This document shows positions 12,274-41,723 of a stretch of DNA of 64,000 nucleotides, in pieces; position 1 is the first letter of the stretch, and the number at the start of each line of letters is the position of its first letter. Made by a program: the position numbers and the translations under genes. This DNA is from Candidatus Nanoarchaeia archaeon (GTDB taxonomy: Archaea > Nanobdellota > Nanobdellia > SCGC-AAA011-G17 > JACPNG01): the NCBI GenBank assembly GCA_028713535.1, contig JAQTOC010000001.1, positions 49,573 to 113,572 on the forward strand, given 5' to 3'. The notes beneath the pieces are model-generated. The model saw only the letters and a program-made list of their open reading frames with translations, ran no database searches and was not told where the DNA came from.

Positions 12274-12288
12274 GGTTTTTAAACATTT

Positions 12289-14595
12289 CTAAACTTTTTG
12301 GATAAGTTTACTCAGCTTCCTGTTCAGCTTTCTAATCAATCTGAGCGATCTTCTTTTGTATCTGCCTGAAACCCCGCTGTAGAGCATCTCTATCCTGCTG
12401 CAGGTTGTTTTTGCCTTGGCATATTCTTTGTTTCTTGCTGATATAATAGCATTCTTGTAAAGCTCTTTTATTTTCCTGTATCTTTCTTTTTCTGAATTGT
12501 CCCTTATTGCTGTTAATGTTGTTCCTCTTGGTTTTTTCTTTATTATGGTTATTATTGTTATGATTAATACAAGGATTATTAACAAGGCCCACCAGCTATC
12601 TTTTGGGCAACTAAAGATTTCATTCAGGCTTATTTTCCCATCACCGCAACTTGTCAATGTTTTTGGCTTTTGGATTTCAAAACAAGGCTTGCATGCTCCG
12701 CCGCAGTCAATGTCTTCCTCGTTTTGGTTCTTGATTTTATCATCACAGGTTGGGCATGGCTTGCAAATACCACCACAATCTGCCATTATTTCATTCTGGT
12801 TCTTTATGCTGTCAAAGCAGGTTTCTACAGGAACATAAATACACTCCTGTTCCTCTTTTGGCTTGTAAACAGCAGTTCCGCAGTTTTTGAAATCAGAGCA
12901 TCTTCTTGTCTGGAATCCTTTGTAGTAATTTTCTTTTATGTACAGGCCTGAGTTCTGGCAGGATGACCAATCTGAACAGACCCATGTTTCTGCACATCTT
13001 GCACCTCCACCGCCTCCTCCTCCGCCACCGCCACCAGCGCCTCCGGATGGAGTTGTTGTAACATCGTTGACTGTTACTGTCCAGGTTTTATTCACTGTAA
13101 GAATTCCGTCAGTTGCCATTGCCATGATTGTATGAATTCCTTGGGAGTTGTAGTTTGGACTGTAAGAGTACTGGTTATTTGTTTCTCCGCTTTGTGCAGA
13201 ATCATCAAAGTACCATTGGATTGAAGGAGTTGTTCCATCAGGATCACTTGAAGTTATATTAAATTCCTGGGTTGAGCCTTCGTTCATGGAAAATGAGAGA
13301 GTTGTTGGGTAGTAAGTATCTATTACAGGAGCCTGGCTTGCAGCAGTTATTGTAAATGAAATTATTTCTGAATCTTCTGCACCTTCAGTGTCATTGACTG
13401 TTATGTTTATTGAATAGGTTGCTGCACCTGAATAAGTTGCGTTTACTAATGCAGCAGTGTTATTAACAAATGTTAAGTTCATTATTGTATCATTACTAAT
13501 GAATGTTAATGGGTAATTTTCTTCCTCATCTGTTGCATAAACATAAAATTCCAGTGAATTGCCTGATTCAACTGTTTTTGAGCCTATTGAATCAAGAATA
13601 GGGGGATCATTTACATTAATTATTTCAAACAATACAACCTGAGAATCAAGTGCAGAGCCATCTACTACGTAAATTTCAACACTATAATTTCCTACATCAG
13701 AATAAGTTGGAGTAAAAAGAATTATTCCTGTTTCTTCTGCTATCACAAACAAGGAAGTATTGTCATAGAATTTTATTGCATCGTTATCAGGGTCTGTTGC
13801 GTTTACATCATATTCAAAAAGAACGTCTTCATAAAGTTCATCCCCGCTTTCTATTGTGAAGTTTGGGACTTCTGTAAGGGCTGGAGCATCATTTACATTA
13901 GTGACTGTGAAGTTTATTGTTTCTGAATCGTATAAATTAGCACTGTTTGTTACGTTTATTGTTATGTCGTAAGAGCCAACCTCTGAGTTTGTTGGAGTAA
14001 ATGAGATAACTCCGGTTATGGGATTAATTGTAAATATTGTGGAATCTGAAGCATAGGTAAGATCCAACCCGTTTGGATCTGTGGCATTGATTTCAATGTA
14101 ATATTCCTGGTCTTCTGTTGCTGTTAAGTCTCCAATTGGATCAAGGATTGGACTGTTTGAAATTATTTCAAGAATAAATTCTCCATCTATGTAAGTGTTA
14201 TTTGTATCGCATATTGTGTTGTTTGCCCAGATTGTTATTGAATGGTTTCCTTCTTGGCCTGATGCTGGAGTGAATGAGATTTCTCCACTGGTTGGATCAA
14301 TGCCGAACATGGATGAATTATCTGAATAAACTATTGTGGAACCTGCTGAAGCTGAGGTGTTAATATCATAATAAAATGCTGTCCCTACCTCTCCTGACTT
14401 ATTTTCCAATGAAGGGCTGAATGCAGGAAGTGTGGCTATGCATACTCCTACACTTCCAACTGGTTTTCCTGTTATCTGCTGTATAAAATAAGGGCTTTCA
14501 TTGATTATAGTAATTGTTGACAGAATTGTTGTTAGTATAATAGTTACATATATGAAAGCAAGTGTTTTGTTTGAATTCCACCTCATTTTTATCAT
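12289..14595 (-). CDS. 768-aa surface protein: cadherin-like repeats, poly-Gly hinge, Cys-rich stalk, C-terminal TM anchor and basic cytoplasmic tail
   Basis: N-terminal TM/signal; NVNDAPALTE and NVNDPPILD repeats; GGAGGGGGGGGGGGA; ~30 Cys in CxxC-type spacing; TM WWALLIILVLIITIITII + KKKPRG. Confidence 0.8.
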   Translation of the reverse strand: MIKMRWNSNKTLAFIYVTIILTTILSTITIINESPYFIQQITGKPVGSVGVCIATLPAFSPSLENKSGEVGTAFYYDINTSASAGSTIVYSDNSSMFGIDPTSGEISFTPASGQEGNHSITIWANNTICDTNNTYIDGEFILEIISNSPILDPIGDLTATEDQEYYIEINATDPNGLDLTYASDSTIFTINPITGVISFTPTNSEVGSYDITINVTNSANLYDSETINFTVTNVNDAPALTEVPNFTIESGDELYEDVLFEYDVNATDPDNDAIKFYDNTSLFVIAEETGIILFTPTYSDVGNYSVEIYVVDGSALDSQVVLFEIINVNDPPILDSIGSKTVESGNSLEFYVYATDEEENYPLTFISNDTIMNLTFVNNTAALVNATYSGAATYSINITVNDTEGAEDSEIISFTITAASQAPVIDTYYPTTLSFSMNEGSTQEFNITSSDPDGTTPSIQWYFDDSAQSGETNNQYSYSPNYNSQGIHTIMAMATDGILTVNKTWTVTVNDVTTTPSGGAGGGGGGGGGGGARCAETWVCSDWSSCQNSGLYIKENYYKGFQTRRCSDFKNCGTAVYKPKEEQECIYVPVETCFDSIKNQNEIMADCGGICKPCPTCDDKIKNQNEEDIDCGGACKPCFEIQKPKTLTSCGDGKISLNEIFSCPKDSWWALLIILVLIITIITIIKKKPRGTTLTAIRDNSEKERYRKIKELYKNAIISARNKEYAKAKTTCSRIEMLYSGVSGRYKRRSLRLIRKLNRKLSKLIQKV
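13004..13040. repeat. second copy of the 37-nt poly-Gly-coding segment
   Basis: identical to 8591..8627. Confidence 0.85.
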
Positions 14596-14625
14596 AACTT
14601 CATGGATTTAACTTTAAATAGCTTT

Positions 14626-15039
14626 CTAGAATCTAGTAGTTATGATTCTTAATTTAGATTGATAGGTTCCTTTTTCTGCGTTTTCAGGCACGAGAATTTT
14701 AAACTCAAGTTCTTTTAGTTCGTCTTTTTCCATCTTAAAATTGTTTTCGTTTACATAAATCCAGTTTTTCAATGTACCTTTTATTTTTATGTTCACATAG
14801 GCTTTATTGTATTCCTGGTTTGTTATCCTGATGCTTCTTGAACCACTATTTCCAGGAGGGATTGTCCCAAATGTTAAGTATGTGGTGTTTAAATCAAAAC
14901 CAAGATTTTCATTTACGTTTACTTCTATTGGTATCTCTTCAACGTCAAGGACAATATAATAATTGTAAAGAACAACCATAAAAAGAATCGTTGTAGGAAC
15001 TACTGCGATTATTAATGGGATTAGGTTACTTCTTTTCAT
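14626..15039 (-). CDS. small N-terminally anchored secreted protein
   Basis: MKRSNLIPLIIAVVPTTILFMVVLY TM then beta-rich 110 aa; overlaps upstream gene by 14 nt. Confidence 0.45.
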   Translation of the reverse strand: MKRSNLIPLIIAVVPTTILFMVVLYNYYIVLDVEEIPIEVNVNENLGFDLNTTYLTFGTIPPGNSGSRSIRITNQEYNKAYVNIKIKGTLKNWIYVNENNFKMEKDELKELEFKILVPENAEKGTYQSKLRIITTRF

Positions 15040-16135
15040 TTTTGTGTTTTACCATGTTTATAACAAAAAAGGCTATCAGCAAGATTATCACAAATATCAA
15101 AACAAAAGTAGTTATCTTTAATTTTGGATTTATAACTTCCAGCATTATTTCTTTTTCTATTGTTTTTCCATTGTAATTAACAAGAATCTTTGCTGGGTAT
15201 ATGCTTGGTTCATAATCGGTTGAATCAAAGTAAATATTTGCTGTTTTTTCCTCCCAGGAATTAATTGAGACTGGAGGGCCCCTGAAAACAGGAACATATT
15301 CCTTATCTTTTTTTACAAAAAGCTCAAGATAGGCATTTTCTATCTTTGAATTCCAGAGGTTTTTGATTTTAACATTTATTATTGCGGTTGTGTCTTTTTC
15401 TATTTTATTTATTGAAACGTCAACTATTTTTATTATTTCAGCCCATACTTTGAAAGTTGTTTCAGTGCTTTTATGGTTCTGGTCAAAGTAAATTATTGCA
15501 CTTGCCTGATAATCTCCTGGTTTAGAGGTTTGCCAGGAAGTTTTTAGTGTTTTTTCTTCATTAACATTAAGAGCTGTTGAAGGTATTTTTAATTTTGCTA
15601 TCTCTTCGTTTTGGCTTATCATTGAAATTGTTGCTTCAAGGTTTTTAATATTTTCCTTGCCGATGTTTTTTACAACAATCTGGACCGGAATCTGCCTGTT
15701 TATTTCAGAATCCTCTATTTTAATAACGCTTTCAATATATTTTCCGGGGTAAGGAACATAAGCGTAGATTTTTATTTCAACTCCGCCAATAGCTCCAACT
15801 AAACCCTGACCACCCTTGGATTCTAAGATAACAATTGAGTTTTCATTTATTCCTGGAGATAGATTTTCAGAGGAAAAAAGCCTGCATGAGATATCTTCCC
15901 ATGCATGGGGCTCAATCGTTATTTCTTTTTCAATTGTTATTGAATTATTTAACTGGCCTCTTGGCTCTATGAGAAATGTTTTTGTTTCTTCTGCATTGTT
16001 TGACAAACTAAACGTGCATGAAAATTCCTTGTTTGGCTCATAACTAATCTCCAAAGAGGGAGGCTGCACCAATATTGCAAGGGAGGGACAAGAAACAAGA
16101 ACTATCAAAATTATTATCAACCCTCTTTTTTCCAT
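15026..16135 (-). CDS. surface protein, paralog A: signal peptide, beta-sandwich-like repeats, C-terminal TM anchor
   Basis: Start taken at MEKRGLIIILIVLVSCPSLAIL; shares VGAIGG...VPYPGKY and ILVNYNGKTIEK blocks with 17001..18218; C-terminal TM FVLIFVIILLIAFFVI + KHKNEKK. Confidence 0.6.
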   Translation of the reverse strand: MEKRGLIIILIVLVSCPSLAILVQPPSLEISYEPNKEFSCTFSLSNNAEETKTFLIEPRGQLNNSITIEKEITIEPHAWEDISCRLFSSENLSPGINENSIVILESKGGQGLVGAIGGVEIKIYAYVPYPGKYIESVIKIEDSEINRQIPVQIVVKNIGKENIKNLEATISMISQNEEIAKLKIPSTALNVNEEKTLKTSWQTSKPGDYQASAIIYFDQNHKSTETTFKVWAEIIKIVDVSINKIEKDTTAIINVKIKNLWNSKIENAYLELFVKKDKEYVPVFRGPPVSINSWEEKTANIYFDSTDYEPSIYPAKILVNYNGKTIEKEIMLEVINPKLKITTFVLIFVIILLIAFFVINMVKHKNEKK

Positions 16136-16166
16136 AAGATGAAAGAAGCGATTTTGTTTATAAATC

Positions 16167-16793
16167 TTATGAGGCTGTTGCAATAAATGTAAGGGTTCCT
16201 GATTTCTGGCCTGAGAGCTCGTCATCTGGAATTGTGATGTTAATGTCAACTATTACAGAGTCAGAGTCATCTGTGAAGTTTAAAGAACATATGGCCCATT
16301 CTGAAGCTGCATTTGGGACTGGCCTCCAATCTCCAGAACTTAGACCACCAGGATAGCCCACTGAGCAGCCGTTTCCAGGAGCTGAACTTGGATAATTTAA
16401 TTCTACGTGAGTTGTGTTATACAAAAGATGTTTGCTGTTGTCAAATGTTGCTGAGCTGAACAAGCTTTCAGTTTCCTGTATTGAAATATTAATGAGAATT
16501 GAGCCGTCGTTTGTTAGATTGAAGCCACAGGCATAATCTGCTGCACAGGCATCTCCTTCAATGTTTTTTTTCAGATAAGAAACTTTTCCATCCCCTGGAT
16601 TTGAAGAGGTAAAGTTTACATCTGCATTTACAATTGAGATGCCAAGGCTTGAGTTTATTGAAATATTAACTGAACCGGTTGTGTGCCCTGTGATAATGGA
16701 GAGCTTTGGGGAGCTGGCAATGATTCCTGTTATGGAGATTCCAACTGCTAGTATAGCTAACGCCACAAGAAATTTACTGGATGGTTCTTTCAT
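16167..16793 (-). CDS. secreted Ser/Asn-rich protein with signal peptide
   Basis: MKEPSSKFLVALAILAVGISITGIIAS...; 208 aa, no C-terminal TM. Confidence 0.5.
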   Translation of the reverse strand: MKEPSSKFLVALAILAVGISITGIIASSPKLSIITGHTTGSVNISINSSLGISIVNADVNFTSSNPGDGKVSYLKKNIEGDACAADYACGFNLTNDGSILINISIQETESLFSSATFDNSKHLLYNTTHVELNYPSSAPGNGCSVGYPGGLSSGDWRPVPNAASEWAICSLNFTDDSDSVIVDINITIPDDELSGQKSGTLTFIATAS

Positions 16794-16977
16794 TTTTCTC
16801 TTTTGTCTTGTTTATTTCATTCACAGAGACCCCGATTTTTCCTGTAGGAGTTTCAATGGAATCAAATGTTTTTACATTATCCTTGTTTTTGATTGCCATA
16901 AGGGTCCCTGCTGCAGAAATTATAATTAAAACTACAAGGATTATTGCAAGAGTCTTGTTTGAAATCTTTTTTTCCAT
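16774..16977 (-). CDS. small single-TM protein
   Basis: MEKKISNKTLAIILVVLIIISAAGTLMAI...; overlaps next gene by 20 nt. Confidence 0.3.
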   Translation of the reverse strand: MEKKISNKTLAIILVVLIIISAAGTLMAIKNKDNVKTFDSIETPTGKIGVSVNEINKTKEKNERTIQ

Positions 16978-17000
16978 TTTAATTGAATTATTAAGTTAAT

Positions 17001-18218
17001 TTAAATAGTTTTTTCTATTTTGTTTTTTCTCCTTATGTATACAAACCAGGCTATGTTGATTATTATCAGGACAATTACAAGTATTGTCAGTATGGTATTC
17101 CTGCCAAGGCCTGCTGCAGCAATTGCCTCACCAGTTCCTAATGAGGAGAACCTTATTGAGCCGAGTGTAATGTAAGCTTTCATGTTTTTTTCTGTTGTTT
17201 TTCCATTGTAATTAAGTATTATTTTTGCATCATAGGTTCCTTCTTTTACAAATTCAGTGTCCCAGTAAGCCAGCAATTCCTGTTTTGACAAAGGTTCGAA
17301 GTTCACGTTTGCACTCTTGAAGTTTCCGGCTTCGTTTCCATTTTCATCAGTAATAACGACTTGGGCATAAACGTCGTTTACCTTGTCATTCCACTTGTTT
17401 TCTGCTGAGATTGTGAACTTTGCAACCTGGCCGAGCTGGAAGTTCTTGGATTCTATGCTCAATATCTCTATGAAAAGATTTCCAACGTAAAATGTTTTTT
17501 CTGCTCTTGCATACTTGCCGTCATAACTTAAAGTGGCTACTGCGTGATATGCTCCGGGATTTACCTCTGCTTTCCATTGGGAGGTTACTTCTTTCTTGTC
17601 TTTTGGATCTATAGAAATTTCATTTGTTGTTACAGTCGCGATTTTTTCATTTGTTGGCCCTAAAATATCTATTGTTGCCTTTGCCTGATTTATTCTTTCT
17701 GTTCCAAAATTCGATATGGGAATTATGAAATTAACATAGTCATTTACCTGGGCATCTGAAATTTCTAAATCTATCTTTGCATATTTTCCAGGATAGGGCA
17801 CCTTTATCTCTATGATTAATGCAACTGCTGCTGTGGCACCAACAAAAGCCTGGCCTTCTGAATTGGATGGAATCTCCAATGCAATTATTTTTAACTGGTG
17901 AGTTCCCGGCTCTTCTATCTTTTCCGGCAAAGTTAAATCAAACTTAAATTCTTTGGATTCTTCTGCTGATGACAATGAAATAATTGAATCGTACATTGTT
18001 ATTAAGTCACTTAGCTCGGATTTTTCTGCGTATAAGACAACCTGCATGTCTTTCTTTTCATTGTTTAATACCTTGAAACTGAATGTTTCTTTCTTGTTTG
18101 CTTCAAAGTCTGTTGTTATTTTACCAGGAGTTATACCTATTGCTTTTACTTCTACTGAAAATAAAATAGTCAGGATTATCAAAACCATTATTGTTTTTAT
18201 TAAAATATTTTTATTCAT
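17001..18218 (-). CDS. surface protein, paralog B: signal peptide, beta-sandwich-like repeats, C-terminal TM anchor
   Basis: MNKNILIKTIMVLIILTILFSVEVKA signal; VGATAAVALIIEIKVPYPGKY; IILNYNGKTTEK; C-terminal TM ILTILVIVLIIINIAWFVYI + RRKNK. Confidence 0.6.
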   Translation of the reverse strand: MNKNILIKTIMVLIILTILFSVEVKAIGITPGKITTDFEANKKETFSFKVLNNEKKDMQVVLYAEKSELSDLITMYDSIISLSSAEESKEFKFDLTLPEKIEEPGTHQLKIIALEIPSNSEGQAFVGATAAVALIIEIKVPYPGKYAKIDLEISDAQVNDYVNFIIPISNFGTERINQAKATIDILGPTNEKIATVTTNEISIDPKDKKEVTSQWKAEVNPGAYHAVATLSYDGKYARAEKTFYVGNLFIEILSIESKNFQLGQVAKFTISAENKWNDKVNDVYAQVVITDENGNEAGNFKSANVNFEPLSKQELLAYWDTEFVKEGTYDAKIILNYNGKTTEKNMKAYITLGSIRFSSLGTGEAIAAAGLGRNTILTILVIVLIIINIAWFVYIRRKNKIEKTI

Positions 18219-18708
18219 ATTGCTCAGCTTTTACCCTTGTGTCTTTTTTTAATGTTAGAGATTCGTCCATGTCAAGAACTGCCTGACCTGTAATTGATAT
18301 CTTGTTTTTCAGGGATTCTTCTATTGAAACATTTAGTTTTGAATTTCCGTCGTTGGTTACTATGTAGTTTTCTTCTTCCTGTTCTAGTTTTAGAGATACT
18401 TTGCTTTCGATATCAAAATCTGAGGTTTTTGAGGAAAACAAACCAACCACTTTCCAGTAGATTTTTTCTAATGGCAGGTTTTCCTCAGGAACGTATGAAC
18501 AGCATGGAACTTGTTTTTTTATTGGCGAGGTAAACTCTGGATTGTTGTCTATTAAAATTGTGTAAGTCATAGGAATTCCTGTCCATTTGAATTCTGGCTT
18601 TCTTTCGTAAGTTATTTTATCCTGGGTTTTTGGAAGAGGAAACAAAATAGTCAGGATTAGAATTATCAAAATCAAATTCACGATTCCAATTTTTAATATT
18701 GTTTTCAT
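18211..18708 (-). CDS. small N-terminally anchored protein
   Basis: ATG at 18708 (MKTILKIGIVNLILIILILTILFPL) overlaps stop of upstream gene as ATGA; ORF-track start at 18720 is a GTG. Confidence 0.45.
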   Translation of the reverse strand: MKTILKIGIVNLILIILILTILFPLPKTQDKITYERKPEFKWTGIPMTYTILIDNNPEFTSPIKKQVPCCSYVPEENLPLEKIYWKVVGLFSSKTSDFDIESKVSLKLEQEEENYIVTNDGNSKLNVSIEESLKNKISITGQAVLDMDESLTLKKDTRVKAEQYE

Positions 18709-19943
18709 GCTGAAACCCACCCTGTAAATACTATGTATGCAATCTTGTCTCCTGCAGGCTCATCTAAAGGAACTTGGACTAGGAAATCTATTTCTGCTTC
18801 GTCATTTGTATCAGAATAATTCAGTTGGGAGATTGCAGTTTCATTGGATATAGGAACGTTTTGCCAGTCTAATTGAGAGGAACCGCCATTAAATGAAAGC
18901 TCTTCTCCTGCTTTTGTGTCTATCTTGTACTGAAAATAAGACGTTGGAGATTGCTTTGAGGTCCACAATCCAGTTGAGCCTTCTCCTAATGATATGTTAA
19001 CATCCACCAATGTGTTTCCATCATTTCTTATTACCAATGGAACTGGAGAGTCCTCTGTTGTATTTGATACATCTCCTACGTTAAGAGTTTCAAAGTCTGT
19101 TGAGGAGGTTGGAAGTGAGAGTATGACCTGCGAGGGAATTAAGAAAGTCCTGTTCTCTGACCAACCACCATATTCAATCCCATCAAAAGCAGACACTCTC
19201 CAAGTATAATTAACATCAACATCAAATTCTATCAAAGAAGTGTATTTTGTTGGGGTTGCTATTTCTGCTATTCCTGTTACATTTATTACAGGACTCTGGA
19301 AATCTGATGAAACTTCATCAACTTGGATAAAATATGTTATTGGATCTCCGTCTGGGTCTGTTGTGTTTGACCATTCAAAAGTTATTGTTTTATCCACTAT
19401 GGTTACATTTCCGTTTTCTGGAAGATATAAATCAACAACGTTTGGAGCATTATTTCCTGTATTAAATGAGCCTGATTCTAAGTCAACCAAGTTTGTTGAG
19501 TCTCTTGCAGTTATGTTCCATGTATACACTCCTGACAAGTCTGCTTTTATTGTTGTTGAGTTCCAGGTTATTCCGTCGAAGGTTGCATTGATATTGTCTA
19601 CAATTGCTGTTCCGTTTGGAAGAACTATTGACATGTTTACTTCAAGAAGATTACTATCTGCATCTGAAACTGTTGCAGTAAGATAAAATTCTATGTTTCT
19701 TGTTATTGTTTCTGGAATGGTTTTATTGTCTGTTATTGAAGGAGAATTGTCTGATTCTGCAAAGAAAAACCCTAGAGAATTCTGGTAGCTTGCTGATGAT
19801 GAATTCCCACTTATTGTTCCTATGAGCATGTTGTTTTGATAGCTTGCTGATGATGAATTTGTTCCTCCTGATGAAATAGTTGTTGTGTTTGAATTATAAC
19901 TATCTGAGCCAGTATTTGCTGCAATGGTTACTGTTGCAAGCAA
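18705..19943 (-). CDS. Ser/Thr/Asn-rich surface protein; either separate (TTG start) or the frameshifted C-terminal continuation of the 1127-aa protein
   Basis: First in-frame start is TTG at 19943; no ATG; N-terminus ILLATVTIAANTG looks like the tail of a hydrophobic segment; frame open upstream to 19998. Confidence 0.5.
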   Translation of the reverse strand: MLATVTIAANTGSDSYNSNTTTISSGGTNSSSASYQNNMLIGTISGNSSSASYQNSLGFFFAESDNSPSITDNKTIPETITRNIEFYLTATVSDADSNLLEVNMSIVLPNGTAIVDNINATFDGITWNSTTIKADLSGVYTWNITARDSTNLVDLESGSFNTGNNAPNVVDLYLPENGNVTIVDKTITFEWSNTTDPDGDPITYFIQVDEVSSDFQSPVINVTGIAEIATPTKYTSLIEFDVDVNYTWRVSAFDGIEYGGWSENRTFLIPSQVILSLPTSSTDFETLNVGDVSNTTEDSPVPLVIRNDGNTLVDVNISLGEGSTGLWTSKQSPTSYFQYKIDTKAGEELSFNGGSSQLDWQNVPISNETAISQLNYSDTNDEAEIDFLVQVPLDEPAGDKIAYIVFTGWVSA

Positions 19944-19954
19944 GATTAAAAATA

Positions 19955-22900
19955 TTACATAATCTGTGAGGTTTCGTTTAATTTTACTTCGCCTCCTTTA
20001 TTTATTGTAATGTACTGGCCTAGATCTGTAAAATTAAAGGATGAATTTGTCAGGTATAACTTCCCTGCGTCCTGAATTGTTAGGTTATACAAGAAATTAT
20101 AGGTTTTTTCTATCCAATGGCAGGTTGTATTTAAAAACCAGTTTGAGGCTGGAGGAGTACAAAGATCGATGTTTATAGACTCAACTTCTGTGGAGTTTAG
20201 GTAAACACTGTTGTAAATTATTTCTATGAACAAATCTTTTAGTCCTGATGTTTGAATATTTGGAGTTGTTACATTTGCTTCCCATGCAGTACCGTTATAT
20301 GCAACTTGTTCCTCTGTGAGGTTTGAACAATTTCCTGCTGAGCAGGCATCACAATTTAACCCATAACCACATCCTGCACAACTTCCTATTGCATCGCATG
20401 AAGGATTGGTTTCACTACATCCACATGTAGAGGAACAAGTTCCTGCCTGACAGACATAACTTGTTGTTCCATAACAATTTGCTGCATCCCAGGAACATCC
20501 GCATGTAGAGCAGTCTCCTTGACTTTGTCCGGTACAGGAAGCTGGAGATCCATCGCATCCAGACCAGGTGCAACCCTGAGCTACACATGTTTCTGAAGTT
20601 GATTTGGTAGCACATGCAGAAGGAGTTCCTGTACAGGCATAAACTGCGGTACAATATGTACTACAGCTAAGACAGTTGGCTTCTGTAGAACCTGCACAGA
20701 CAGCGGTACCACCTATACATCCGCCTGGGAGAGGTTCTAGGGTACAACCCTGAGTACTACAACCAGTACATGATGTTCTTGGAATACTCTCACATTCTCC
20801 TTCACCAGTACAACTTGAATATGTCCAGTCACATCCAAAGCTTTCACATGTAGATTGACCTGCTCCTGTGTGAGTTGAACAGGCAGCAGGTGCTCCTTCA
20901 CATCCATCCCAGGTACATCCACAGGTTTCACAATTTGTTTGGCTTGAATCATGAGTATCACATACATCTGGATCTCCTGCACCAGCATCATAACAATTTG
21001 CAACATCCCAAGAGCATCCACAAGAAACGCAACTACCTACGCCATAAGTTGCACACGCAGATGCTGAACCACTACAACCATAAGCTGTGTAATTACATTG
21101 ACTGCATTCATTACAGTTTTTAGTTTCGTTTGATGCTGTACAGTTTAAAGTTCCTGCACATGAATTTGTTTCTGCTATTGTTGCATCTATTCCATCGATG
21201 GTTGCGTTTGTCAGATTTACTCCAGATGTTATTTCTGTTAGATTATAAACATTAAAGAATATTGAAATAATTTCATATGCTGTTGCATTTCTTACAAGTT
21301 CTGTTGTTGGATTCAGGGCAGTTATGTTTGGTTTTTCATAAACTGTGAATGTAACTGAACTTAAATTTTCTAGTCCATCTGTTCCGTTGCTGTAAACAAA
21401 ATAGGTCTGGCTTCCAAGGCTTGGAGACAGACCTGTCAAGTTAGTTCCGCATTCAATTGTTGTATTAATATCTCCGATATTTAATGAATACCAACAAGTA
21501 TCGAGAGCTTCTGTGGTATTTGTAACTGTGTAATTCAGATCGGTAACTTCGCCTTCAACGTACGATGTATTTTCTGGATATGCTATTGCTATATCTGGGG
21601 GAAAATCTGTTATTGTTATGCAATTTCCATCCCATGGAGCCCCGTTGTAATCATATAATTCAAACCATCCTGCAGTATCATTCATTATAGTAGCAATAAA
21701 AGCATCTTTACATAAAACTCCATAGGTATTTGTATCAAATGCTCCTTCCCAAGTTTGGTGGGGAGCATCCAAATCTACAATTCCAGCATCAGATAAACTA
21801 ATGTTTACTACGTTATTAAATGCTGAACCATCTTCAACAAAATCAAAAATAAATATAGTTGAATTACTTCCACCTGTAGTGGCAAAAGTTGTTGCATTTA
21901 ATCTTACAATGGCTATCCCAGTTCTTTTTCCTAATTCCCCTGGTGGCAATGAATAAGGAGTAGAAGCAACGGCTGTTGCATCACTGTGGTTTGCGCTTGC
22001 CAGATAATAATTGGCCTGAGTTGCAGCACTTGTATAATCATAATAATTGACCATGTAATAGTAATTGTTCATTACTGCGACCCTAACATTTCCAGCTGCT
22101 CCGGCACCAACGTCTACTACATAGGAAGATGATCCTTGGTTGTATTCTGTTCTTGTTTTAACTATAATATCATCAAGGTTGTTATCATAGTAACTCTGGA
22201 CTACATTAATCCTGCCTACTGCACCACCATCTTTCATACAACAATCCCCGTGAACCTGAGAGTTTTCATCTCCAGTACTTTGTATCGCACTTATATTTGA
22301 ATTAGCGAATGTGACGGTGTTAGTGCCAGTATATAAAAATCCCCTTGCCCTAATCATATTATCATTGTTATTTATCCATTCAATTACAAAATCTGTGGAG
22401 TTAACAACAACTATATTATTGCTTCTATCATATAATCCTGTAGTTGTATCAGCAGTAGCTCCATTTAATTTTGTTCCAGAAGAAGAACCCCCGTTTAACA
22501 TTCCTGCAATATCAAATATCTCAAAATCTATTTGAGTAGCATTTCCATTTTGTCCAACTACAACAAAGGACGTATCATTTAATCCACCAATATCAACTGG
22601 ATGGGAAGTACATTGTGCTCCTGTTGTGGAAAATCCAAATGTTGTTTCCCATGTAGAACCAATCTGAGTTCCGTTAACATCAAATACTGCAATGTGATAA
22701 ATATTATCTATATCATTACACCATGCCATTGCAACATAAGAATTGTTTAAGATTGTGACTGAGGCCTGGGTATCTGTATTTGTTGCTGTGGTGAATATGG
22801 CTGTTCCAAACCCAATCAGAACTTTTTGTTCTGGGATTACCTCATCAACATGGACTTCTATGGAACTTTCCTCCAGGAAGTTTATCTGGGAGATATTTGT

Positions 22901-23338
22901 AGATATTTTGTTTCCTTCAGTCCTAACAGGAAGTTTGTCCAGATTGTCAAAATCAGAAATTACTTCTTCAAGAGATTTTTCTGTTGATAGATAATTATCC
23001 TTTAAGTCTGATATACATCTTATTTTTTCTTCATCAAATTTAGACTTGCAATTTTCTATTTCTTTTTTTATTATTTCTTTTGGTTTTATTGTGATTATAA
23101 ACGTGTTTTTATCGTTTTGGATAATATTGAAGTCCAGATATGCTTCAAAATAGTCTTGTTTTTCAACTTGCATTCTTAAGTTTTTTTCTGGGAATTGTGT
23201 GAATAGTTTTGGAGAGGTTTTGATGACGTTGGTTGTTGTTTCTTTGTATTTTAGCAGGAGAATTATAATTAATATAATAAAAATAGTGATTGCTAATAAA
23301 AATAGTATTTTTTTCTTATTGAGAGGATTTTTGGTCAT
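19955..23338 (-). CDS. giant 1127-aa surface protein with N-terminal TM anchor and Cys-rich (CxCGC[ST]WD) module
   Basis: MTKNPLNKKKILFLLAITIFIILIIILLL TM; ~70 Cys concentrated in residues ~770-1000; start 1 nt after stop of upstream giant gene. Confidence 0.75.
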   Translation of the reverse strand: MTKNPLNKKKILFLLAITIFIILIIILLLKYKETTTNVIKTSPKLFTQFPEKNLRMQVEKQDYFEAYLDFNIIQNDKNTFIITIKPKEIIKKEIENCKSKFDEEKIRCISDLKDNYLSTEKSLEEVISDFDNLDKLPVRTEGNKISTNISQINFLEESSIEVHVDEVIPEQKVLIGFGTAIFTTATNTDTQASVTILNNSYVAMAWCNDIDNIYHIAVFDVNGTQIGSTWETTFGFSTTGAQCTSHPVDIGGLNDTSFVVVGQNGNATQIDFEIFDIAGMLNGGSSSGTKLNGATADTTTGLYDRSNNIVVVNSTDFVIEWINNNDNMIRARGFLYTGTNTVTFANSNISAIQSTGDENSQVHGDCCMKDGGAVGRINVVQSYYDNNLDDIIVKTRTEYNQGSSSYVVDVGAGAAGNVRVAVMNNYYYMVNYYDYTSAATQANYYLASANHSDATAVASTPYSLPPGELGKRTGIAIVRLNATTFATTGGSNSTIFIFDFVEDGSAFNNVVNISLSDAGIVDLDAPHQTWEGAFDTNTYGVLCKDAFIATIMNDTAGWFELYDYNGAPWDGNCITITDFPPDIAIAYPENTSYVEGEVTDLNYTVTNTTEALDTCWYSLNIGDINTTIECGTNLTGLSPSLGSQTYFVYSNGTDGLENLSSVTFTVYEKPNITALNPTTELVRNATAYEIISIFFNVYNLTEITSGVNLTNATIDGIDATIAETNSCAGTLNCTASNETKNCNECSQCNYTAYGCSGSASACATYGVGSCVSCGCSWDVANCYDAGAGDPDVCDTHDSSQTNCETCGCTWDGCEGAPAACSTHTGAGQSTCESFGCDWTYSSCTGEGECESIPRTSCTGCSTQGCTLEPLPGGCIGGTAVCAGSTEANCLSCSTYCTAVYACTGTPSACATKSTSETCVAQGCTWSGCDGSPASCTGQSQGDCSTCGCSWDAANCYGTTSYVCQAGTCSSTCGCSETNPSCDAIGSCAGCGYGLNCDACSAGNCSNLTEEQVAYNGTAWEANVTTPNIQTSGLKDLFIEIIYNSVYLNSTEVESINIDLCTPPASNWFLNTTCHWIEKTYNFLYNLTIQDAGKLYLTNSSFNFTDLGQYITINKGGEVKLNETSQIM

Positions 23339-23339
23339 T

Positions 23340-26300
23340 TTAGTTTACCTTAAAAATTAAATCAGTTCCGTCAAAGTAGATCATGGCGTTGTCCTCGTCC
23401 CCCAGGTAAATTATATCATTGGTTTTTACTTTAACACCCTGGGCTGTAATGTTGTTTGTTACATTGAGATTTGCAGGGAATACATAGTCATTTGCAGTAG
23501 TGCCAAAGGTTCCATTTACTATCTTAGAAGGATTTATTTCTGCTGAAGCATTTATATCTGCGTTATTTATTTCTCCGCACGTTAAAACTCCTGCCTCGGT
23601 CTTTAGCACACAGGATGTGAAACTATCTAGATATAACCCCTGGGTGAAGTTAGTGTCTGTTTCAAAGGTCTGATTTATTGTAAATATCTGGCTGTTATTC
23701 AGGTATGATACATTTACATTGTCAAATGGAATATCACCTACAATGTGAGTTGTTAATGAAGCGTTATTCTCAGTTGTTTCTTTCACTAAGTTAGTCAGAG
23801 ATATATTATTTTCAGTAACGGTTGTGTTTACTCCTTCTATTGTGATGTTTATTGCGGTATCATCAAATGCGGTTGTATCATCTGTTGTACAATATAGATT
23901 TCCTCCTGTATCTGTGCTAACTACATCACAACTAGTTAAATTGCTTAGGACTGGAGAATACATCATTGAGGTTTGGCTATCAAAGGTTATGTCTCCAGTA
24001 AAGTTCTGAGTGTTGTTTAAGTAGGAAACATTTACATTGTCAAATGGAATATCCCCTGCAATGTGGGTTGTTAATGAAGCGTTATTCTCAGTTATTTCTT
24101 TCACCAAGTTGGTCAGAGATATATTATTTTCAGTAACGGTTGTGTTTACTCCTGTTATGGTTATGTTTATAGATCCATCATCGAAAGAGCCTCCGGCATC
24201 GTCTGAACCACAAACCAAATTACCCCCTGCATCTGTATCAATTGTATCACAGCTTGTTAAATTACTTAATTTAGGACTTGAATCAAATATTATTGTTTCA
24301 TTTGTAATCTGCACTGGTCCATTGAATGTTGCAGTCTGATTTGTAAATGCCACATTTGTTAAATCACTACCTGTTCCTGAATCATCTGAGCCACACACTA
24401 AATTTCCTTGGCTGTCTGTATCAATTGTATCACAGCTTGTTAAATTACTTAATTTAGGACTTGAATCAAATATTATTGTTTCATTTGTAATCTGCACTGG
24501 TCCATTGAATGTTGCAGTCTGATTTGTAAATGCAACGTTTGTCAAATCATCGCTTCCACCCAAATCAGTTCCACAAACCAAGTTACCCTGGGAATCTGTA
24601 TCTATTGTGTTACAATTAGTTAAATTGCTTAATATAGGGGAGTACATCATTGAAACCTGGCTGTCAAAGGTTATGTCTCCAGTAAAGTTCTGAGTGTTAT
24701 TTAAGTAGGATACGTTAATACTATCAAACTGTACATCACTTGCAAGATGGGCTGTTAATGAAGCGTTATTTTCAGTTGTTTCTTTTACTAAGGCTGTTAA
24801 TGAGGCATTGTTCTCAGTTACTGTTGTGTTAACTCCAGTTATTGTTATGTTTATAGATCCATCATCGAAAGAGCCTCCAGCATTATCTGAACCACAAACC
24901 AAATTACCCCCTGCATCTGTATCAATAGTATCACAGCTTGTTAAATTACTTAATTTAGGACTTGAATCAAATATTATTGTTTCATTTGTAATCTGCACTG
25001 GTCCATTGAATGTTGCAGTCTGATTTGTGAAAGCTACATTAGTTAACTCTGTTGAACCTGCTCCAGTATTGTCTGAACCGCATACTAAGTTACCCTGAGA
25101 ATCTGTATCTATTGTGTCACAACTTGTTAGATTGCTAAGAACAGGACTTGAGTCCATAATAATAGTTTCATTAGTAATATGAACTGGACCTGTGAAGTTA
25201 GCAGTCTGATTTGTAAATGCTACATTTGTAAGATCTGTTGAACCTGCTCCTGCATTATCAGTTCCACAAACTAAATTTCCTTCTGAGTCTGTATCTATTG
25301 TGTCACAACTTGTAAGATTACTTAATTTAGGAGTTGAGTCAAATATTATTGTTTCATTAGTAATATGAACCGGACCTGTAAAGTTAGCAGTTTGATTTGT
25401 GAAAGCTACATTTGTTAAATCGCCACCAGCACCTGAATCTGTTCCGCAAACTAATACGCCAGATGTTGTTTTTAATGTGCAGGATTCAAAACTATCCAGG
25501 TATAAATTTCCTGTTAAGTTTGTATCCCCCTGTACTGTCAATGAATGTGTTGGAGATTCACTTCCGATTCCTACTTTATCGGTTGGGTTTGATAAAGTAA
25601 CTGAACCTTCTGACCTGTTCCATGCACTTGAATTTAGAGTTTCTGAACTTCCTCCTGTAAGCCAAGATGGAATGTTTACTATTTCTGAATTCCAGTCTAC
25701 ACATTGTGTACAAGATAGATTATAAGCGATGTCTGCAACAAATGAATAAGGACTTGAAGTCATGTTTACTCTTGGAGTCATTTCTGAATCACCTGAAACT
25801 GTTATTCCGAGATAATACCCTTTGTCAAAACTAAGATTTATTGGCTGGTCTAATCCAAGAGTTGCTGAATAAATCCCGTTTGAAACAGGAACTGTCAAAC
25901 TTTCTTCCCATAAACCAGAACCTCCGCTGTAAACATCATATACCTTGAATAACATTACAGTGTCGCCGTTTACGCTTGATCCTGCTGAATCTGTAAGCTT
26001 ACCATGGACGCTTATTGTCTGAGGGAATTCTGAGGCGTAGTTGTAGGCGTTTGCTGACTCTGTTCCAAATGTTATTTTTAGTATATGAGAGCCGGTTCCA
26101 AGAACTTCTGAGGTTTCTTTTGATGATTCTGAGCAGGCATAACTTGGGACAAACACTTTTCCGTTTGTCAATGAAGAAGTTATCACTGAGTTTCCGCATT
26201 TTAAGTTTATGAAATCTAGGTCTTTTGAAAATGAGGTTCCTTCAATGGGTTCAATTGTAAGGTCTGCTGTCCCAAAAGTCTGGAAGTTAACTTCCCAATA

Positions 26301-27302
26301 ATCCCCTACCTGAGGGTAGGACTGAATGTTTAATACTGTTAGATTACTTCCAACATAACCTGAAAATGAATTTACCTTAAATGTTATTGAATCTCCGTTG
26401 TCTGTAAATGGAATTGCTGTTTTATCCCAGCTTGGACAGTAGCCTGATTCTGGGTTGAATGAAGGGCATTTCAAGATTATGTTTACTGTGTCGTATTTTG
26501 GAAGTGTGATTGTTGCTTCCTCAATTTCCACTGAGGGGAATGCAAACACATCTGTTGTGAATCTTGGGTCGTTTACTGTGTCAAGGAAGCTTACTATGTT
26601 TTCTGATTTTAATCCTTTTATGTTAATTTCTGCCTGATTGTTTTTTCCTTTTGACAAAAGTGCTATTGCGTCTGGAGAGGTTTTAAGAGTTAACTCATAG
26701 CCTTTTTCTGTTTCTTTTATTTCCTGATTTAGCTGTTTTCCTTTCTGGACTAGATTTATTTTTGAGGTTTTGTTTGTTTCTGTTATGTTTGTAATATTTT
26801 CCTCAACGGTAATGTTTTCTTCTACTGGAATCTCAATTATTTCAGGAACTGGAATTTCTATTGTTGTATTTTCATCTTCTGGAACGCTTATTGTTATGTT
26901 TTCATTTGTTTCATTTAATTCTATTATTTCTGGCTGAGCAGGTAGATCTTCCTGGGTTACTGTTACTTTCTTGCTATCAATAACAACTCCGTTTACAATT
27001 AAATCAATATAGGCTTCTCCTGGCTCTGAGATGTTGTAGTCTTCTAAGTTGATTATTATTTTATTGTCTTTTACTATTTCACTTAATGGAACATCTTTTA
27101 TGTAATTGTTTAAAGTAAATCTTACTAAGGTATTTTCAACCGGAATTGTTTCATTGTATTCAAACTCTACTAAACCAACTACGTTTCCAAGATATTCAAA
27201 CATGTTGAAATAATTAAGAACAATTGCTGCAAGGATTATTATGATCACTACTACCAATGGATATTTGTTTTTCTTTTTGTAGTTAATCTGGTTTACTTTC
27301 AT
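23340..27302 (-). CDS. giant 1320-aa N-terminally anchored surface protein with long, near-identical internal tandem repeats (fibre/adhesin-like)
   Basis: MKVNQINYKKKNKYPLVVVIIIILAAIVL anchor; 61-aa repeat LTNVAFTNQTA.F.GPV.ITNETII.DS.P.LSNLTSCDTIDTD..GNLVCG.D in several copies inside 228-aa super-repeats; very high N-x-S/T density. Confidence 0.75.
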   Translation of the reverse strand: MKVNQINYKKKNKYPLVVVIIIILAAIVLNYFNMFEYLGNVVGLVEFEYNETIPVENTLVRFTLNNYIKDVPLSEIVKDNKIIINLEDYNISEPGEAYIDLIVNGVVIDSKKVTVTQEDLPAQPEIIELNETNENITISVPEDENTTIEIPVPEIIEIPVEENITVEENITNITETNKTSKINLVQKGKQLNQEIKETEKGYELTLKTSPDAIALLSKGKNNQAEINIKGLKSENIVSFLDTVNDPRFTTDVFAFPSVEIEEATITLPKYDTVNIILKCPSFNPESGYCPSWDKTAIPFTDNGDSITFKVNSFSGYVGSNLTVLNIQSYPQVGDYWEVNFQTFGTADLTIEPIEGTSFSKDLDFINLKCGNSVITSSLTNGKVFVPSYACSESSKETSEVLGTGSHILKITFGTESANAYNYASEFPQTISVHGKLTDSAGSSVNGDTVMLFKVYDVYSGGSGLWEESLTVPVSNGIYSATLGLDQPINLSFDKGYYLGITVSGDSEMTPRVNMTSSPYSFVADIAYNLSCTQCVDWNSEIVNIPSWLTGGSSETLNSSAWNRSEGSVTLSNPTDKVGIGSESPTHSLTVQGDTNLTGNLYLDSFESCTLKTTSGVLVCGTDSGAGGDLTNVAFTNQTANFTGPVHITNETIIFDSTPKLSNLTSCDTIDTDSEGNLVCGTDNAGAGSTDLTNVAFTNQTANFTGPVHITNETIIMDSSPVLSNLTSCDTIDTDSQGNLVCGSDNTGAGSTELTNVAFTNQTATFNGPVQITNETIIFDSSPKLSNLTSCDTIDTDAGGNLVCGSDNAGGSFDDGSINITITGVNTTVTENNASLTALVKETTENNASLTAHLASDVQFDSINVSYLNNTQNFTGDITFDSQVSMMYSPILSNLTNCNTIDTDSQGNLVCGTDLGGSDDLTNVAFTNQTATFNGPVQITNETIIFDSSPKLSNLTSCDTIDTDSQGNLVCGSDDSGTGSDLTNVAFTNQTATFNGPVQITNETIIFDSSPKLSNLTSCDTIDTDAGGNLVCGSDDAGGSFDDGSINITITGVNTTVTENNISLTNLVKEITENNASLTTHIAGDIPFDNVNVSYLNNTQNFTGDITFDSQTSMMYSPVLSNLTSCDVVSTDTGGNLYCTTDDTTAFDDTAINITIEGVNTTVTENNISLTNLVKETTENNASLTTHIVGDIPFDNVNVSYLNNSQIFTINQTFETDTNFTQGLYLDSFTSCVLKTEAGVLTCGEINNADINASAEINPSKIVNGTFGTTANDYVFPANLNVTNNITAQGVKVKTNDIIYLGDEDNAMIYFDGTDLIFKVN
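23900..25450. repeat. intragenic direct tandem repeats (183-nt unit; 684-nt super-unit) inside 23340..27302
   Basis: 24233-24352 and 24416-24535 are identical over ~120 nt (offset 183). 24160-24345 vs 24844-25029 are ~97% identical (offset 684 = 228 codons). Further diverged copies lie near 24600, 25110 and 25290. Confidence 0.8.
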
Positions 27303-40935: not shown

Positions 40936-41320
40936 TTTCTTTTTCTCCTTTCTTCTTGTTCTTCATCCTTCTTTTATCATCAAGGTTTAATTCTGTTATC
41001 TGCAAGTTTGAAGCATTAATCGGATATCTTGTTTTGTTTCCGTCTTTCTTTATTGTTTCTATGTTCTCTATGTACACTTTTGATTGTTTAATATCTACTT
41101 CTGTTACCTTCCCTGTTCTCTTTTTGAATTTTCCAATCATTATCTTTACAGTGTCACCCTTTCTTATCTGGATGTTCCTTATGCCGTGTTTTTTTCTCAG
41201 GTCTTTTGAAAGGTTTACATTCATGAATTTCTTTTTAATGTGAAGTGGAGCATTGTACCTATATTTATGCTGCTTTCTAGGGCTTTTACTTGCATTCCAT
41301 GTTTTTGACCATTCTTTCAT
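40925..41320 (-). CDS. rpl24: ribosomal protein uL24
   Basis: KOW IRKGDTVKIMIGKFKKRTGKV. Confidence 0.85.
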   Translation of the reverse strand: MKEWSKTWNASKSPRKQHKYRYNAPLHIKKKFMNVNLSKDLRKKHGIRNIQIRKGDTVKIMIGKFKKRTGKVTEVDIKQSKVYIENIETIKKDGNKTRYPINASNLQITELNLDDKRRMKNKKKGEKENAK

Positions 41321-41321
41321 T

Positions 41322-41723
41322 TTATACTACGATGCTAGCAATCTTTGCCAATGCAGGCCATCTTTCTACTGCCTCCTTTGCAATAGGGCCTTTAAAAATT
41401 GTACCTTTTGGGTTTCCTTTATCGTCTTTGAAAACTATCATTGCGTTGTCCTCAAACTTAATTCTTGTCCCGTCTGCTCTTTTGTATTCTTTTTTTTGCC
41501 TTACTATTACTCCAATTACTACCTTCTTTCTTACATCAGGACGCCCGCTTACTACAGAGCCCATGACAAAGTCACCAATGCCTCCTTTTGGAAGAGCACC
41601 TTTTATGTTCTTGTATCTTCTTACGTTGAATATTCTTACTTTTTTAGCTCCCGAATTATCACAAACATCAACGTTTGCTCCTACAGGGATCCCCCTTGTC
41701 ACGTTTGCAGACAATGCTTTCAT
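41322..41723 (-). CDS. rpl14: ribosomal protein uL14
   Basis: VCDNSGAKKVRIF. Confidence 0.95.
   Translation of the reverse strand: MKALSANVTRGIPVGANVDVCDNSGAKKVRIFNVRRYKNIKGALPKGGIGDFVMGSVVSGRPDVRKKVVIGVIVRQKKEYKRADGTRIKFEDNAMIVFKDDKGNPKGTIFKGPIAKEAVERWPALAKIASIVV

Follow-up and report, generated by a model that had tools for sequence, protein, structure and literature searches.

How DPANN and CPR organisms attach to their hosts is poorly understood, and recognisable domains are absent from most of their large surface proteins. A gene for an exported protein of 1127 aa, located in a 64,000-nucleotide stretch of a Candidatus Nanoarchaeia archaeon contig (JAQTOC010000001.1; this whole stretch is hereafter the window), raises a specific question in this context: what is the Cys-rich module that the protein carries, and what may it do at the cell surface? 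Our answer, to which we give a probability of roughly 0.6, is that the module is an array of uncurated, disulfide-stapled extracellular mini-domains that would act as a rigid rod and probably have a part in binding.

The reading frame given by the first-pass annotation was recovered unchanged (Table 1). The gene lies in a tight operon, with the upstream gene ending at 23340 and the downstream gene starting at 19943. In the translated protein, the hydrophobic stretch close to the N-terminus is the sole membrane-type segment, and would act as a signal-anchor or a signal peptide, judging from its sequence. The beta-rich region has no family match in Pfam; compared with the ortholog it shows 40% identity, 32 gap columns and a dN/dS of 0.46, and it may be a variable recognition head. 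The sequon-rich region ahead of the array resembles a segment of the Woesearchaeota protein L012 (41% over 111 aa, E 5e-10) that overlaps the Big_13 Ig-like match of L012, and may likewise be Ig-like. Downstream of the array, the C-terminal region contains one Cys pair (positions 1060 and 1073), and neither a terminal membrane segment or sorting signal in its translation nor a Pfam match was found. The array is therefore located in the protein's distal third, behind the N-terminal anchor, the fast-evolving candidate head and the conserved sequon-rich region. This arrangement makes the description of the module as a stalk, put forward by the first-pass annotation, doubtful, since the protein has no hydrophobic anchor other than the N-terminal one and the module is distal rather than beside the membrane.

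Table 1. Features of the 1127-aa exported protein and of its Cys-rich array, with their positions in the window
Feature	Residues (aa)	Window position	Strand	Basis
Gene for the 1127-aa exported protein carrying the Cys-rich module		19955..23338	(-)	ORF list; full-length ortholog L103
N-terminal hydrophobic segment, ILFLLAITIFIILIIILLL, after a Lys-rich start	11-29	23252..23308	(-)	Read from the translation
Beta-rich, fast-evolving region	171-570	21629..22828	(-)	Ortholog comparison
Sequon-rich region directly ahead of the array	571-726	21161..21628	(-)	75% identity to the ortholog
R1, N-cap variant, CAGTLNC-x8-CxxCxxCxY, 5 Cys	727-754	21077..21160	(-)	Variant common to other arrays
R2, R3, R4, canonical units	755-781, 782-812, 813-842	20813..21076	(-)	Independent HMM
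R5, R6, divergent units, 5 Cys each	843-873, 874-901	20636..20812	(-)	Cys spacing read from the sequence
R7, R8, most canonical pair, CTGTPSACATKSTSETCVAQGCTW and CDGSPASCTGQSQGDCSTCGCSW	902-927, 928-954	20477..20635	(-)	Independent HMM
C-terminal cap, R9 and R10, 11 Cys	955-1006	20321..20476	(-)	Matches the P0004 C-terminus
C-terminal region, not Cys-rich, sequon-rich	1007-1127	19958..20320	(-)	Translation; 76% identity to the ortholog

The module covers aa 727-1004 (window 20327..21160) and contains 49 Cys in 278 aa, the whole protein having 61. The cluster was thus found where it had been placed beforehand (20340-21200), and the four strings quoted from it (SCVSCGCSWD, CETCGCTWDGCEG, CESFGCDWTY and CSTCGCSWDAANCY) are all present, but the accompanying estimate of about 70 Cys in about 250 aa was too high. 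Cysteine accounts for 17.6% of the module versus 1.04% in the window's other 44 ORFs (binomial P about 6e-44). The module is composed of ten tandem units of ~26-27 aa, opened by a cap variant at the N-terminal end and closed by a C-terminal cap with 11 Cys, and the unit consensus reads C1-[ST]-G-T-P-x2-C2-x-[ST]-[YHF]-x5-C3-x3-G-C4-[ST]-W. Linkers are short, mostly 4-8 residues from C4 to the following C1. The motif CxCGC[ST]WD reported by the first-pass annotation does occur, but it represents just the 3' half of this longer unit, and the middle Cys of CxxCGC, which is specific to certain lineages, does not belong to the invariant core. We refer to the family defined in this analysis as the 'CxGTPxxC...GCxW' four-Cys repeat.

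Five units, R2, R3, R4, R7 and R8, fit the family Cys spacing (C-x5-7-C-x7-10-C-x4-5-C), and each of them has the Gly after C1 (+2), the Gly before C4 and the Trp after C4 (+2). R1 fits as a cap variant, and the same variant, CxGTL[NT]C...CxxCxxCx[WY], starts the arrays of P0001, P0004, P0008, L031, L036, L080, L101, L107 and L103 (these and similar handles designate family members). R5 and R6 have Leu or Ala in place of Trp and a changed C3-C4 spacing, with all their Cys kept in the ortholog; they match only weakly with the first unit HMM, which included this protein's own units, and give no match with the independent one. Trp is lost in R9 as well. The Cys spacing of the C-terminal cap is 7-4-3-1-6-5-2-5-2-4, and the cap aligns ungapped with the C-terminus of P0004 (aa 578-616; 49% identity, E 2e-7), whose tail also contains 11 Cys. 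A fifth Cys is found in R1-3, R5-6 and R8-10, taking the form CxxCGC[ST]W in R2 and R3. It is missing from R4, which has Phe instead (CESFGCDW), and from R7.

With C, G, S, T and A making up 68% of its residues, the module might be taken for compositional or low-complexity sequence that lacks a defined fold, or even for a wrong reading frame. We regard this as vanishingly improbable. The frame is open over 1127 codons and under purifying selection, the dN/dS of 0.17 in the module being the lowest in the gene (0.32 for the whole gene). With a unit HMM from which this protein and its ortholog were left out, the real module scores 54.6 bits, whereas 500 residue shuffles average -90 and do not exceed -42. 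The same type of profile, free of query and ortholog, detects the whole protein at E 2.9e-11, with five units individually significant (i-E of 2e-3, 4.5e-6 and 1.9e-5 for R2, R3 and R4, and of 2.9e-7 and 7e-3 for R7 and R8), and none of the other ORFs of the window at E<0.3. Full-length and 63% identical, the ortholog L103, from a Nanoarchaeia MAG, has syntenic neighbours. Its module is 85.6% identical, with one gap, and 82% identical at non-Cys residues. The first-pass annotation had itself named a low-complexity artefact devoid of conserved Cys spacing as what would overturn its reading; this is not what was found, the spacing being strictly kept at 49 of 49 Cys in the ortholog and across 193 units from 77 proteins.

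The module is also richer in GC than the remaining gene (0.45 vs 0.343), as had been remarked earlier and ascribed to Cys, Gly, Ala and Thr codons. Indeed, the rise is located in codon positions 1+2 (0.58 vs 0.39) and not in GC3, which is lower in the module (0.19 vs 0.24), indicating that it comes from Cys/Gly/Ala/Ser/Thr codons. Horizontal transfer as the source of the rise is ruled out by the lower GC3. No tandem repeat was found in the module at the DNA level, showing that the units are old and do not result from recent slippage, and recent repeat expansion is ruled out on the same ground.

The first-pass annotation had also suggested looking for the repeat in other DPANN proteomes, and it was found there and beyond. 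Ten matches were obtained in 1.84e9 representative proteins, and GTDB species genomes scanned for a codon pattern yielded 113 loci, with 65 ORFs matching the unit HMM. Protein-collection matches and codon-pattern loci combined gave the 193 distinct units, carried by at least 77 exported proteins. Across these units C2, C3 and C4 are conserved at 100%, C1 and G3 at 99%, W24 at 92% and G21 at 89%. The carriers are DPANN anchored or pilin-like proteins, CPR type IV pilins, Methanosarcinales proteins and Myxococcota lipoproteins, and their N-termini bear export signals of several kinds: lipoboxes in the Myxococcota members, archaeal pilin-like leaders in P0001, P0004 and L020, pilin N-termini in L081 and L034, N_methyl and T2SSG pilin domains in L052, and N-terminal anchors in the 1127-aa protein, L103, L012 and L030; signal peptides occur among the relatives too. 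Compact, strongly conserved and endowed with a clear signature, the module is usable as a searchable profile, and it connects ultra-small archaea and bacteria, through their surface proteins and type IV pilins, with the lipoproteins of soil myxobacteria (Myxococcota).

Other searches were less productive. The whole protein had no match in a word-index homology search of the protein collection; since these searches returned no self-match, the 1127-aa protein is not in that collection. The module alone retrieved P0011 as sole match, and a di-unit profile gave 27 candidates, none of them significant. With the whole protein as query, a locus search of GTDB genomes and JGI metagenomes revealed no relative, and an ortholog-specific codon pattern found nothing in metagenomes. 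Among the Myxococcota lipoproteins, no conserved gene neighbours were found beyond pairs of closely related genomes. Within the window, the first-pass annotation had pointed to a 768-aa paralog with a shorter Cys-rich stalk. A Cys-rich region is indeed present in that protein (aa 534-663, window about 12607..12996, 17 Cys), but neither the paralogy nor the unit repeat was recovered: the best BLAST E-value between the two proteins is 1.6, the unit HMM does not match, and the motifs differ (CxxWxCxxWSxC, DCGGxCxPC, CGDG). As far as sequence comparison tells, this region is unrelated to the four-Cys repeat.

Does the repeat belong to a family that is already described? No Pfam or NCBIfam family matched the 1127-aa protein (Pfam E<=1), curated S-layer domain models included, in agreement with the initial view of an extracellular Cys-stabilised module unlike any archaeal S-layer domain. 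Sequence searches of the PDB gave chance-level matches only (E>=0.07), a PDB fold search gave no match, and literature searches returned nothing on the four-Cys repeat. The family is in none of the libraries searched (Pfam-A, NCBIfam, PDB). That the module is nonetheless a divergent member of a described Cys-rich family, such as EGF/laminin-EGF, PSI, TNFR-type, DUF4215 or hevein-like, is in our opinion highly unlikely; in its favour are a loose pattern likeness (PSI, CxxC...CxWC) and the presence of a DUF4215 repeat elsewhere in the family member L064. The PSI domain, likewise a small extracellular Cys-rich fold (a Cys knot), resembles the unit in its CxxC...CxW-type stretch, a likeness that we treat as a lead only: it spans about 50 aa with eight Cys, CxWC among them, and does not form tandem units of 26 aa, whereas the unit described here has no Cys directly after Trp, and neither Pfam nor structural comparison gave a PSI match. 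EGF-like and laminin-type EGF arrays are likewise tandem, very small and disulfide-stapled, with short linkers, and form rigid rods that often carry binding sites. However, their units are 35-60 aa long, with six or eight Cys and a different signature, and occur in eukaryotic extracellular matrix and receptor proteins, whereas the present unit is prokaryotic, measures about 26 aa and combines four invariant Cys with an invariant Trp; no EGF Pfam model matched, and no match to the EGF fold was found. The Myxococcus cysteine-rich repeat (DUF4215 / PF13948; TIGR02232) is also a prokaryotic, extracellular, tandem Cys-rich repeat common in Myxococcota, but its motif is different (CGDG...ExCDDGN), and neither PF13948 nor the NCBIfam repeat model matched the 1127-aa protein or the relatives tested; the motif of CGDG type is present in the nearby 768-aa protein but absent from the 1127-aa one. 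Hevein-like/CBM18 and other mini carbohydrate-binding modules offer a possible functional analogy, being tiny, disulfide-rich, often repeated, equipped with conserved aromatics and joined by flexible linkers to a surface anchor, but hevein-like/CBM18 domains have eight Cys with other spacing and show no sequence or fold match to the unit. For annotation, the module provides a handle as a new domain family; being small and autonomous, the unit lends itself to structure work, and it is a candidate through which binding by episymbiont surface proteins can be studied. We see the result as a domain discovery of practical use, not as a conceptual surprise.

A structural model of the R7-R8 di-unit (aa 902-954) was obtained with AlphaFold2 from 42 in-register rows (pLDDT 86.8, pTM 0.57). 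In this model, the residue after C1 forms a beta-bridge with the residue after C4, indicating that each unit is closed on itself, and a short helix bears C3. This good model rests on one di-unit and an alignment of family units; three units modelled from a staggered alignment gave a pLDDT of 41.

We therefore favour a reading in which window 20321..21160(-) would encode ten small, independently folding extracellular mini-domains in tandem. From the invariant Cys and the export signals, we infer that the four invariant Cys of each unit form two intra-unit disulfides; all 77 units of aerobic Myxococcota have exactly four Cys, in keeping with two disulfides in each. A tiny core and/or the joint to the following unit would be provided by the invariant Trp together with the aromatic residue after C2, and the short linkers and the caps would yield a stiff, protease-resistant rod at the cell surface. 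The architecture suggests that this rod probably offers a surface for binding or attachment, to a partner protein, to itself or to a glycan: in relatives, the units are often the sole folded part, tied by a disordered linker to a lipid anchor, or are fused at the end of a type IV pilin. With units so often terminal or alone, the array is probably more than a spacer. On the other hand, the high conservation of the module might simply stem from how densely so small a fold is packed.

A purely mechanical role, in which the array is an inert spacer or stalk, a rigid disulfide-braced rod setting the distance between flanking domains, is conceivable, but we consider it rather unlikely. Arrays of small tandem Cys-rich units, such as those of the EGF type, are classic rod builders, the linkers are short, and the array is located between other domains in the 1127-aa protein, L103, L012, L067 and P0008. 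With the anchor N-terminal and the array distal, however, the array does not hold the variable head off the membrane. Furthermore, nothing follows the array in the Myxococcota lipoproteins and the CPR pilins, L052 among them, nor in P0003, P0007 and P0009, which consist of little besides units, so that a spacer would have nothing to hold apart there, and the module is the best-conserved segment of the protein, non-Cys residues included, whereas spacers usually drift.

A second question is whether all these cysteines are engaged in disulfides. The odd total of 49 and the existence of isolated five-Cys units indicate that not every Cys is in an intra-unit disulfide. Some or all of them may instead bind Zn, Fe, Cu, Ni or a cluster, the metal being structural or serving metal capture or redox chemistry on the surface of an anaerobe; we regard such a metal-thiolate module as unlikely. 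The five-Cys form and the N-cap display classic chelating spacings (CxxCxC and CxxCxxC), single five-Cys units have no partner Cys, the odd Cys total is conserved, and the five-Cys form is found only in DPANN, CPR, Methanosarcinales and similar MAGs. The invariant core, however, consists of four Cys spaced 6/8/4, with no paired CxxC knuckles, and these four are the only Cys in all 77 Myxococcota units. Zinc-ribbon, ferredoxin and metallothionein models gave no match, and no His, Asp or Glu that could serve as a ligand is conserved. Metallothioneins share with the module a high Cys content and the CxxCxC and CxxCxxC spacings, but their Cys content is about 30%, versus 17.6% here, and the invariant Gly, the invariant Trp, the aromatic after C2 and the predicted helix and beta-bridge set the unit apart from them.

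A disulfide-stapled rod would leave room for a distinct role of the fifth Cys, the middle one of CxxCGC[ST]W, which is found in 39 of the 193 units, in none of the Myxococcota units, and also in isolated single units. Most organisms that have the five-Cys form are anaerobes, in which extracellular disulfides are less certain. As a long shot, the fifth Cys may remain as an unpaired thiol or create a chelating CxxCxC site, making the array a redox- or metal-switchable covalent attachment device that the ultra-small DPANN and CPR episymbionts and some methanogens would carry on surface proteins and pili, with intermolecular disulfides or metal bridges to host or partner surfaces. Confined to certain lineages, the fifth Cys offers a specific hypothesis open to biochemistry. 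Pairing of the fifth Cys between adjacent units as a general rule is ruled out by the isolated five-Cys units. In the array studied here, the two units that lack it, R4 and R7, are placed symmetrically, a pattern with a chance of about 5/45 of arising at random; one may speculate that it reflects an antiparallel hairpin of the array, stapled unit to unit.

The 1127-aa protein carries 61 Cys, 49 of which fall within a 278-residue module made of ten units of about 27 aa (R1-R10). Given a Cys frequency of 1.04% in the other 44 ORFs of the window, the probability of such a concentration is about 6e-44. The first-pass annotation had located this stretch correctly and its four quoted strings are present, but its estimate of about 70 Cys was too high. 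The module is GC-richer than the remainder of the gene (0.45 vs 0.343). This excess lies in codon positions 1+2 (0.58 vs 0.39), GC3 being lower in the module (0.19 vs 0.24), so that the GC bump follows from the use of codons for Cys, Gly, Ala, Ser and Thr and not from foreign DNA. Tandem Repeats Finder reported no DNA-level repeat in the module, and the protein repeats are thus old and diverged.

Coordinates of the features in the window
Feature	Residues (aa)	Window position	Strand	Description
Surface-protein cluster		6605..27302	-	ten tightly packed genes
HerA/DUF87-type ATPase gene		6605..7924	-	end of the cluster
768-aa protein		12289..14595	-	Big_9, He_PIG and PKD domains
17-Cys region of the 768-aa protein	534-663	12607..12996	-	immediately before the C-terminal membrane segment
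1127-aa protein		19955..23338	-	member of the cluster
Cys-rich module	727-1004	20327..21160	-	49 Cys
R1	727-754			N-terminal cap variant, CxGTLNC...CxxCxxCxY
R2-R4 and R7-R8				canonical units
R5-R6				divergent units, Trp lost
R9-R10	955-1006			C-terminal cap, 11 Cys
Fastest-evolving region of the 1127-aa protein	171-570	21629..22828	-	32 gap columns against the ortholog
1320-aa protein		23340..27302	-	repeats with one Cys pair each
427-aa ORF		31278..32561	-	PriS and PriL fused
PEP-utilising-enzyme mobile domain ORFs		119..1186; 1200..2492; 61745..63196	+	C-terminal domain, sole match
Cys-rich ORF		41253..41873	+	15 Cys in 206 aa, no Pfam match
Cys-rich ORF		48956..49414	-	11 Cys in 152 aa

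Three tests indicate a real, constrained domain and disfavour a low-complexity artefact. First, a profile built from 181 units, leaving out the 1127-aa protein and its ortholog, recovered the protein at E 2.9e-11, with five units significant one by one and nothing below E 0.3 in the rest of the window. Second, this profile gave the module 54.6 bits, whereas 500 shuffled versions averaged -90 and reached -42 at most. Third, the codon-pattern scan identified an ortholog that spans the full length at 63% identity in a Candidatus Nanoarchaeia MAG (locus L103, JAQTMY010000001.1), next to orthologs of four neighbouring genes. Aligned pairwise, the 1127-aa protein and this ortholog share 49/49 module Cys with one gap. 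Identity reaches 85.6% in the module (82% for non-Cys residues) vs 40% at aa 171-570, and dN/dS (Nei-Gojobori) is 0.17, the lowest of the gene, vs 0.46. Cys conservation, identity and dN/dS thus show that the module is not a low-complexity region devoid of conserved Cys spacing.

How widespread is the unit? When the module was compared exhaustively by phmmer with 1.84 billion representative proteins, only ten matched at E<=1e-3 (P-numbers), each carrying the unit. Scanning one genome per GTDB species for the codon pattern yielded 113 loci (L-numbers), with 65 ORFs in which the unit HMM scores at E<=1e-3; the other loci, chiefly from GC-rich actinomycetes, fall short of this threshold, and we presume that most of them are chance pattern matches. 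The 193 distinct units define the consensus C-[ST]-G-T-P-x2-C-x-[ST]-[YHF]-x5-C-x3-G-C-[ST]-W, with the first Cys conserved in 99% and the other three in 100% of units, the Gly after the first Cys in 99%, the Gly before the fourth in 89% and the Trp in 92%. All unit carriers are exported proteins. In Myxococcota and Polyangiaceae lipoproteins, a Gly/Ser/Asp-rich linker follows the lipobox, and three to five units occupy the extreme C-terminus. In CPR bacteria the carriers are type IV pilins: in L052, at least six units (seven by the first HMM pass) extend from the N_methyl and T2SSG domains to the C-terminus, and L081 and L034 have pilin N-termini. Archaeal carriers bear pilin-like leaders (P0001, P0004, L020) or N-terminal anchors (the 1127-aa protein, L103, L012, L030), and in Methanosarcinales the units lie within very large proteins. 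At least nine other proteins have arrays that begin with the N-cap variant. The C-cap can be aligned gap-free with the C-terminus of P0004, at 49% identity (E 2e-7), and each of the two contains 11 Cys. In the small relatives P0003, P0007 and P0009, a short INIGDAWK.V / VNIGDVWE.V motif recurs in alternation with the Cys units and may be a second mini-repeat partnering with them.

Membership in a known Cys-rich family is disfavoured, as neither Pfam-A nor NCBIfam had a match at E<=1 to the module, the 1127-aa protein or its relatives, and PDB sequences gave no significant match to the unit. Literature searches found no description of the repeat. The proposal of an extracellular, Cys-stabilised module was right in spirit but too narrow: the module belongs to a previously uncurated, cross-domain repeat family. 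We classify it as a putative disulfide-rich extracellular repeat.

Most units have four Cys (152 of 193); a fifth, located in CxxCGCxW, occurs in 39. The CxCGC[ST]WD motif noticed initially covers just the 3' end of the unit, and its middle Cys is this optional fifth residue. The five-Cys form is absent from Myxococcota (77/77 units four-Cys), common in DPANN, CPR and Methanosarcinales, and found in a few other MAGs (carriers: P0003, P0004, P0009, L017, L030, L031, L036, L055, L056, L080, L101, L107). Lone five-Cys units with no other Cys nearby occur in L030, L056 (twice) and P0009; with an odd Cys count, each of them must have one or more Cys outside any intra-unit disulfide. The module's total is likewise odd, as is that of its ortholog. 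The fifth Cys may remain a free thiol, form an intermolecular disulfide or belong to a CxxCxC metal site, and a metal-thiolate module is a less likely reading of the array. In the 1127-aa protein, eight units have the extra Cys; its symmetric lack in R4 and R7 would be consistent with an array folded back as an antiparallel hairpin, but such symmetry has a chance probability of about 0.11.

Taken together, these results demonstrate a capped array of tandem mini-domains that is ancient, exported and under strong constraint. Each unit would hold two disulfides, and the array would be stiff, with a probable binding role. A pure spacer is a less likely alternative; we favour an array that would be more than a spacer, because the sole anchor of the 1127-aa protein is N-terminal and the array distal rather than membrane-proximal, because many relatives end in the array or have no other folded part, and because it evolves slower than its flanks. 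Within the fastest-evolving region (aa 171-570), segments resembling beta-strands recur and suggest a beta-rich head built of repeats, which may be the specificity-determining part of the protein.

The surrounding cluster encodes large surface proteins that are rich in sequons and have Big_9, cadherin-like, PKD, CARDB and fn3-like matches, and at least five of its genes are syntenic at L103. The 768-aa protein had been described as a paralog with a shorter Cys-rich stalk. The stalk is genuine and membrane-proximal, since its 17-Cys region adjoins the C-terminal membrane segment, but paralogy is not supported: we found no unit-HMM match, no BLAST similarity to the 1127-aa protein and different motifs (CxxWxCxxWSxC...QTRRC, two NQNE...DCGGxCxPC and one CGDG). 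This region matches no Pfam model; an archaeal ORF at locus L010 resembles it (40% identity over 53 aa, E 6e-7). The 1320-aa protein shares about 46% identity with its ortholog at L103. It is built in part of near-identical repeats of about 60 aa, about six to eight in number (…LTNVAFTNQTA.F.GPV.ITNETII.DS.P.LSNLTSCDTIDTD..GNLVCG.D…) alternating with INITITGVNTTVTENN.SLT segments, and has only weak, sub-threshold Pfam matches.

The window is archaeal and DPANN-like, and the nearest relative found is the Nanoarchaeia MAG. Its genes include those for Topo VI B, SecY and ribosomal proteins, as well as a primase in which PriS and PriL are fused. This 427-aa ORF matches both small and large DNA primase subunit models, a fusion typical of DPANN archaea. 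Neither of the two other Cys-rich ORFs matches the unit HMM; the shorter one has weak, sub-threshold DUF7560 and Cas12f1-like TNB zinc-ribbon matches. The presence of three ORFs with the PEP-utilising-enzyme mobile domain is unusual for a small genome.
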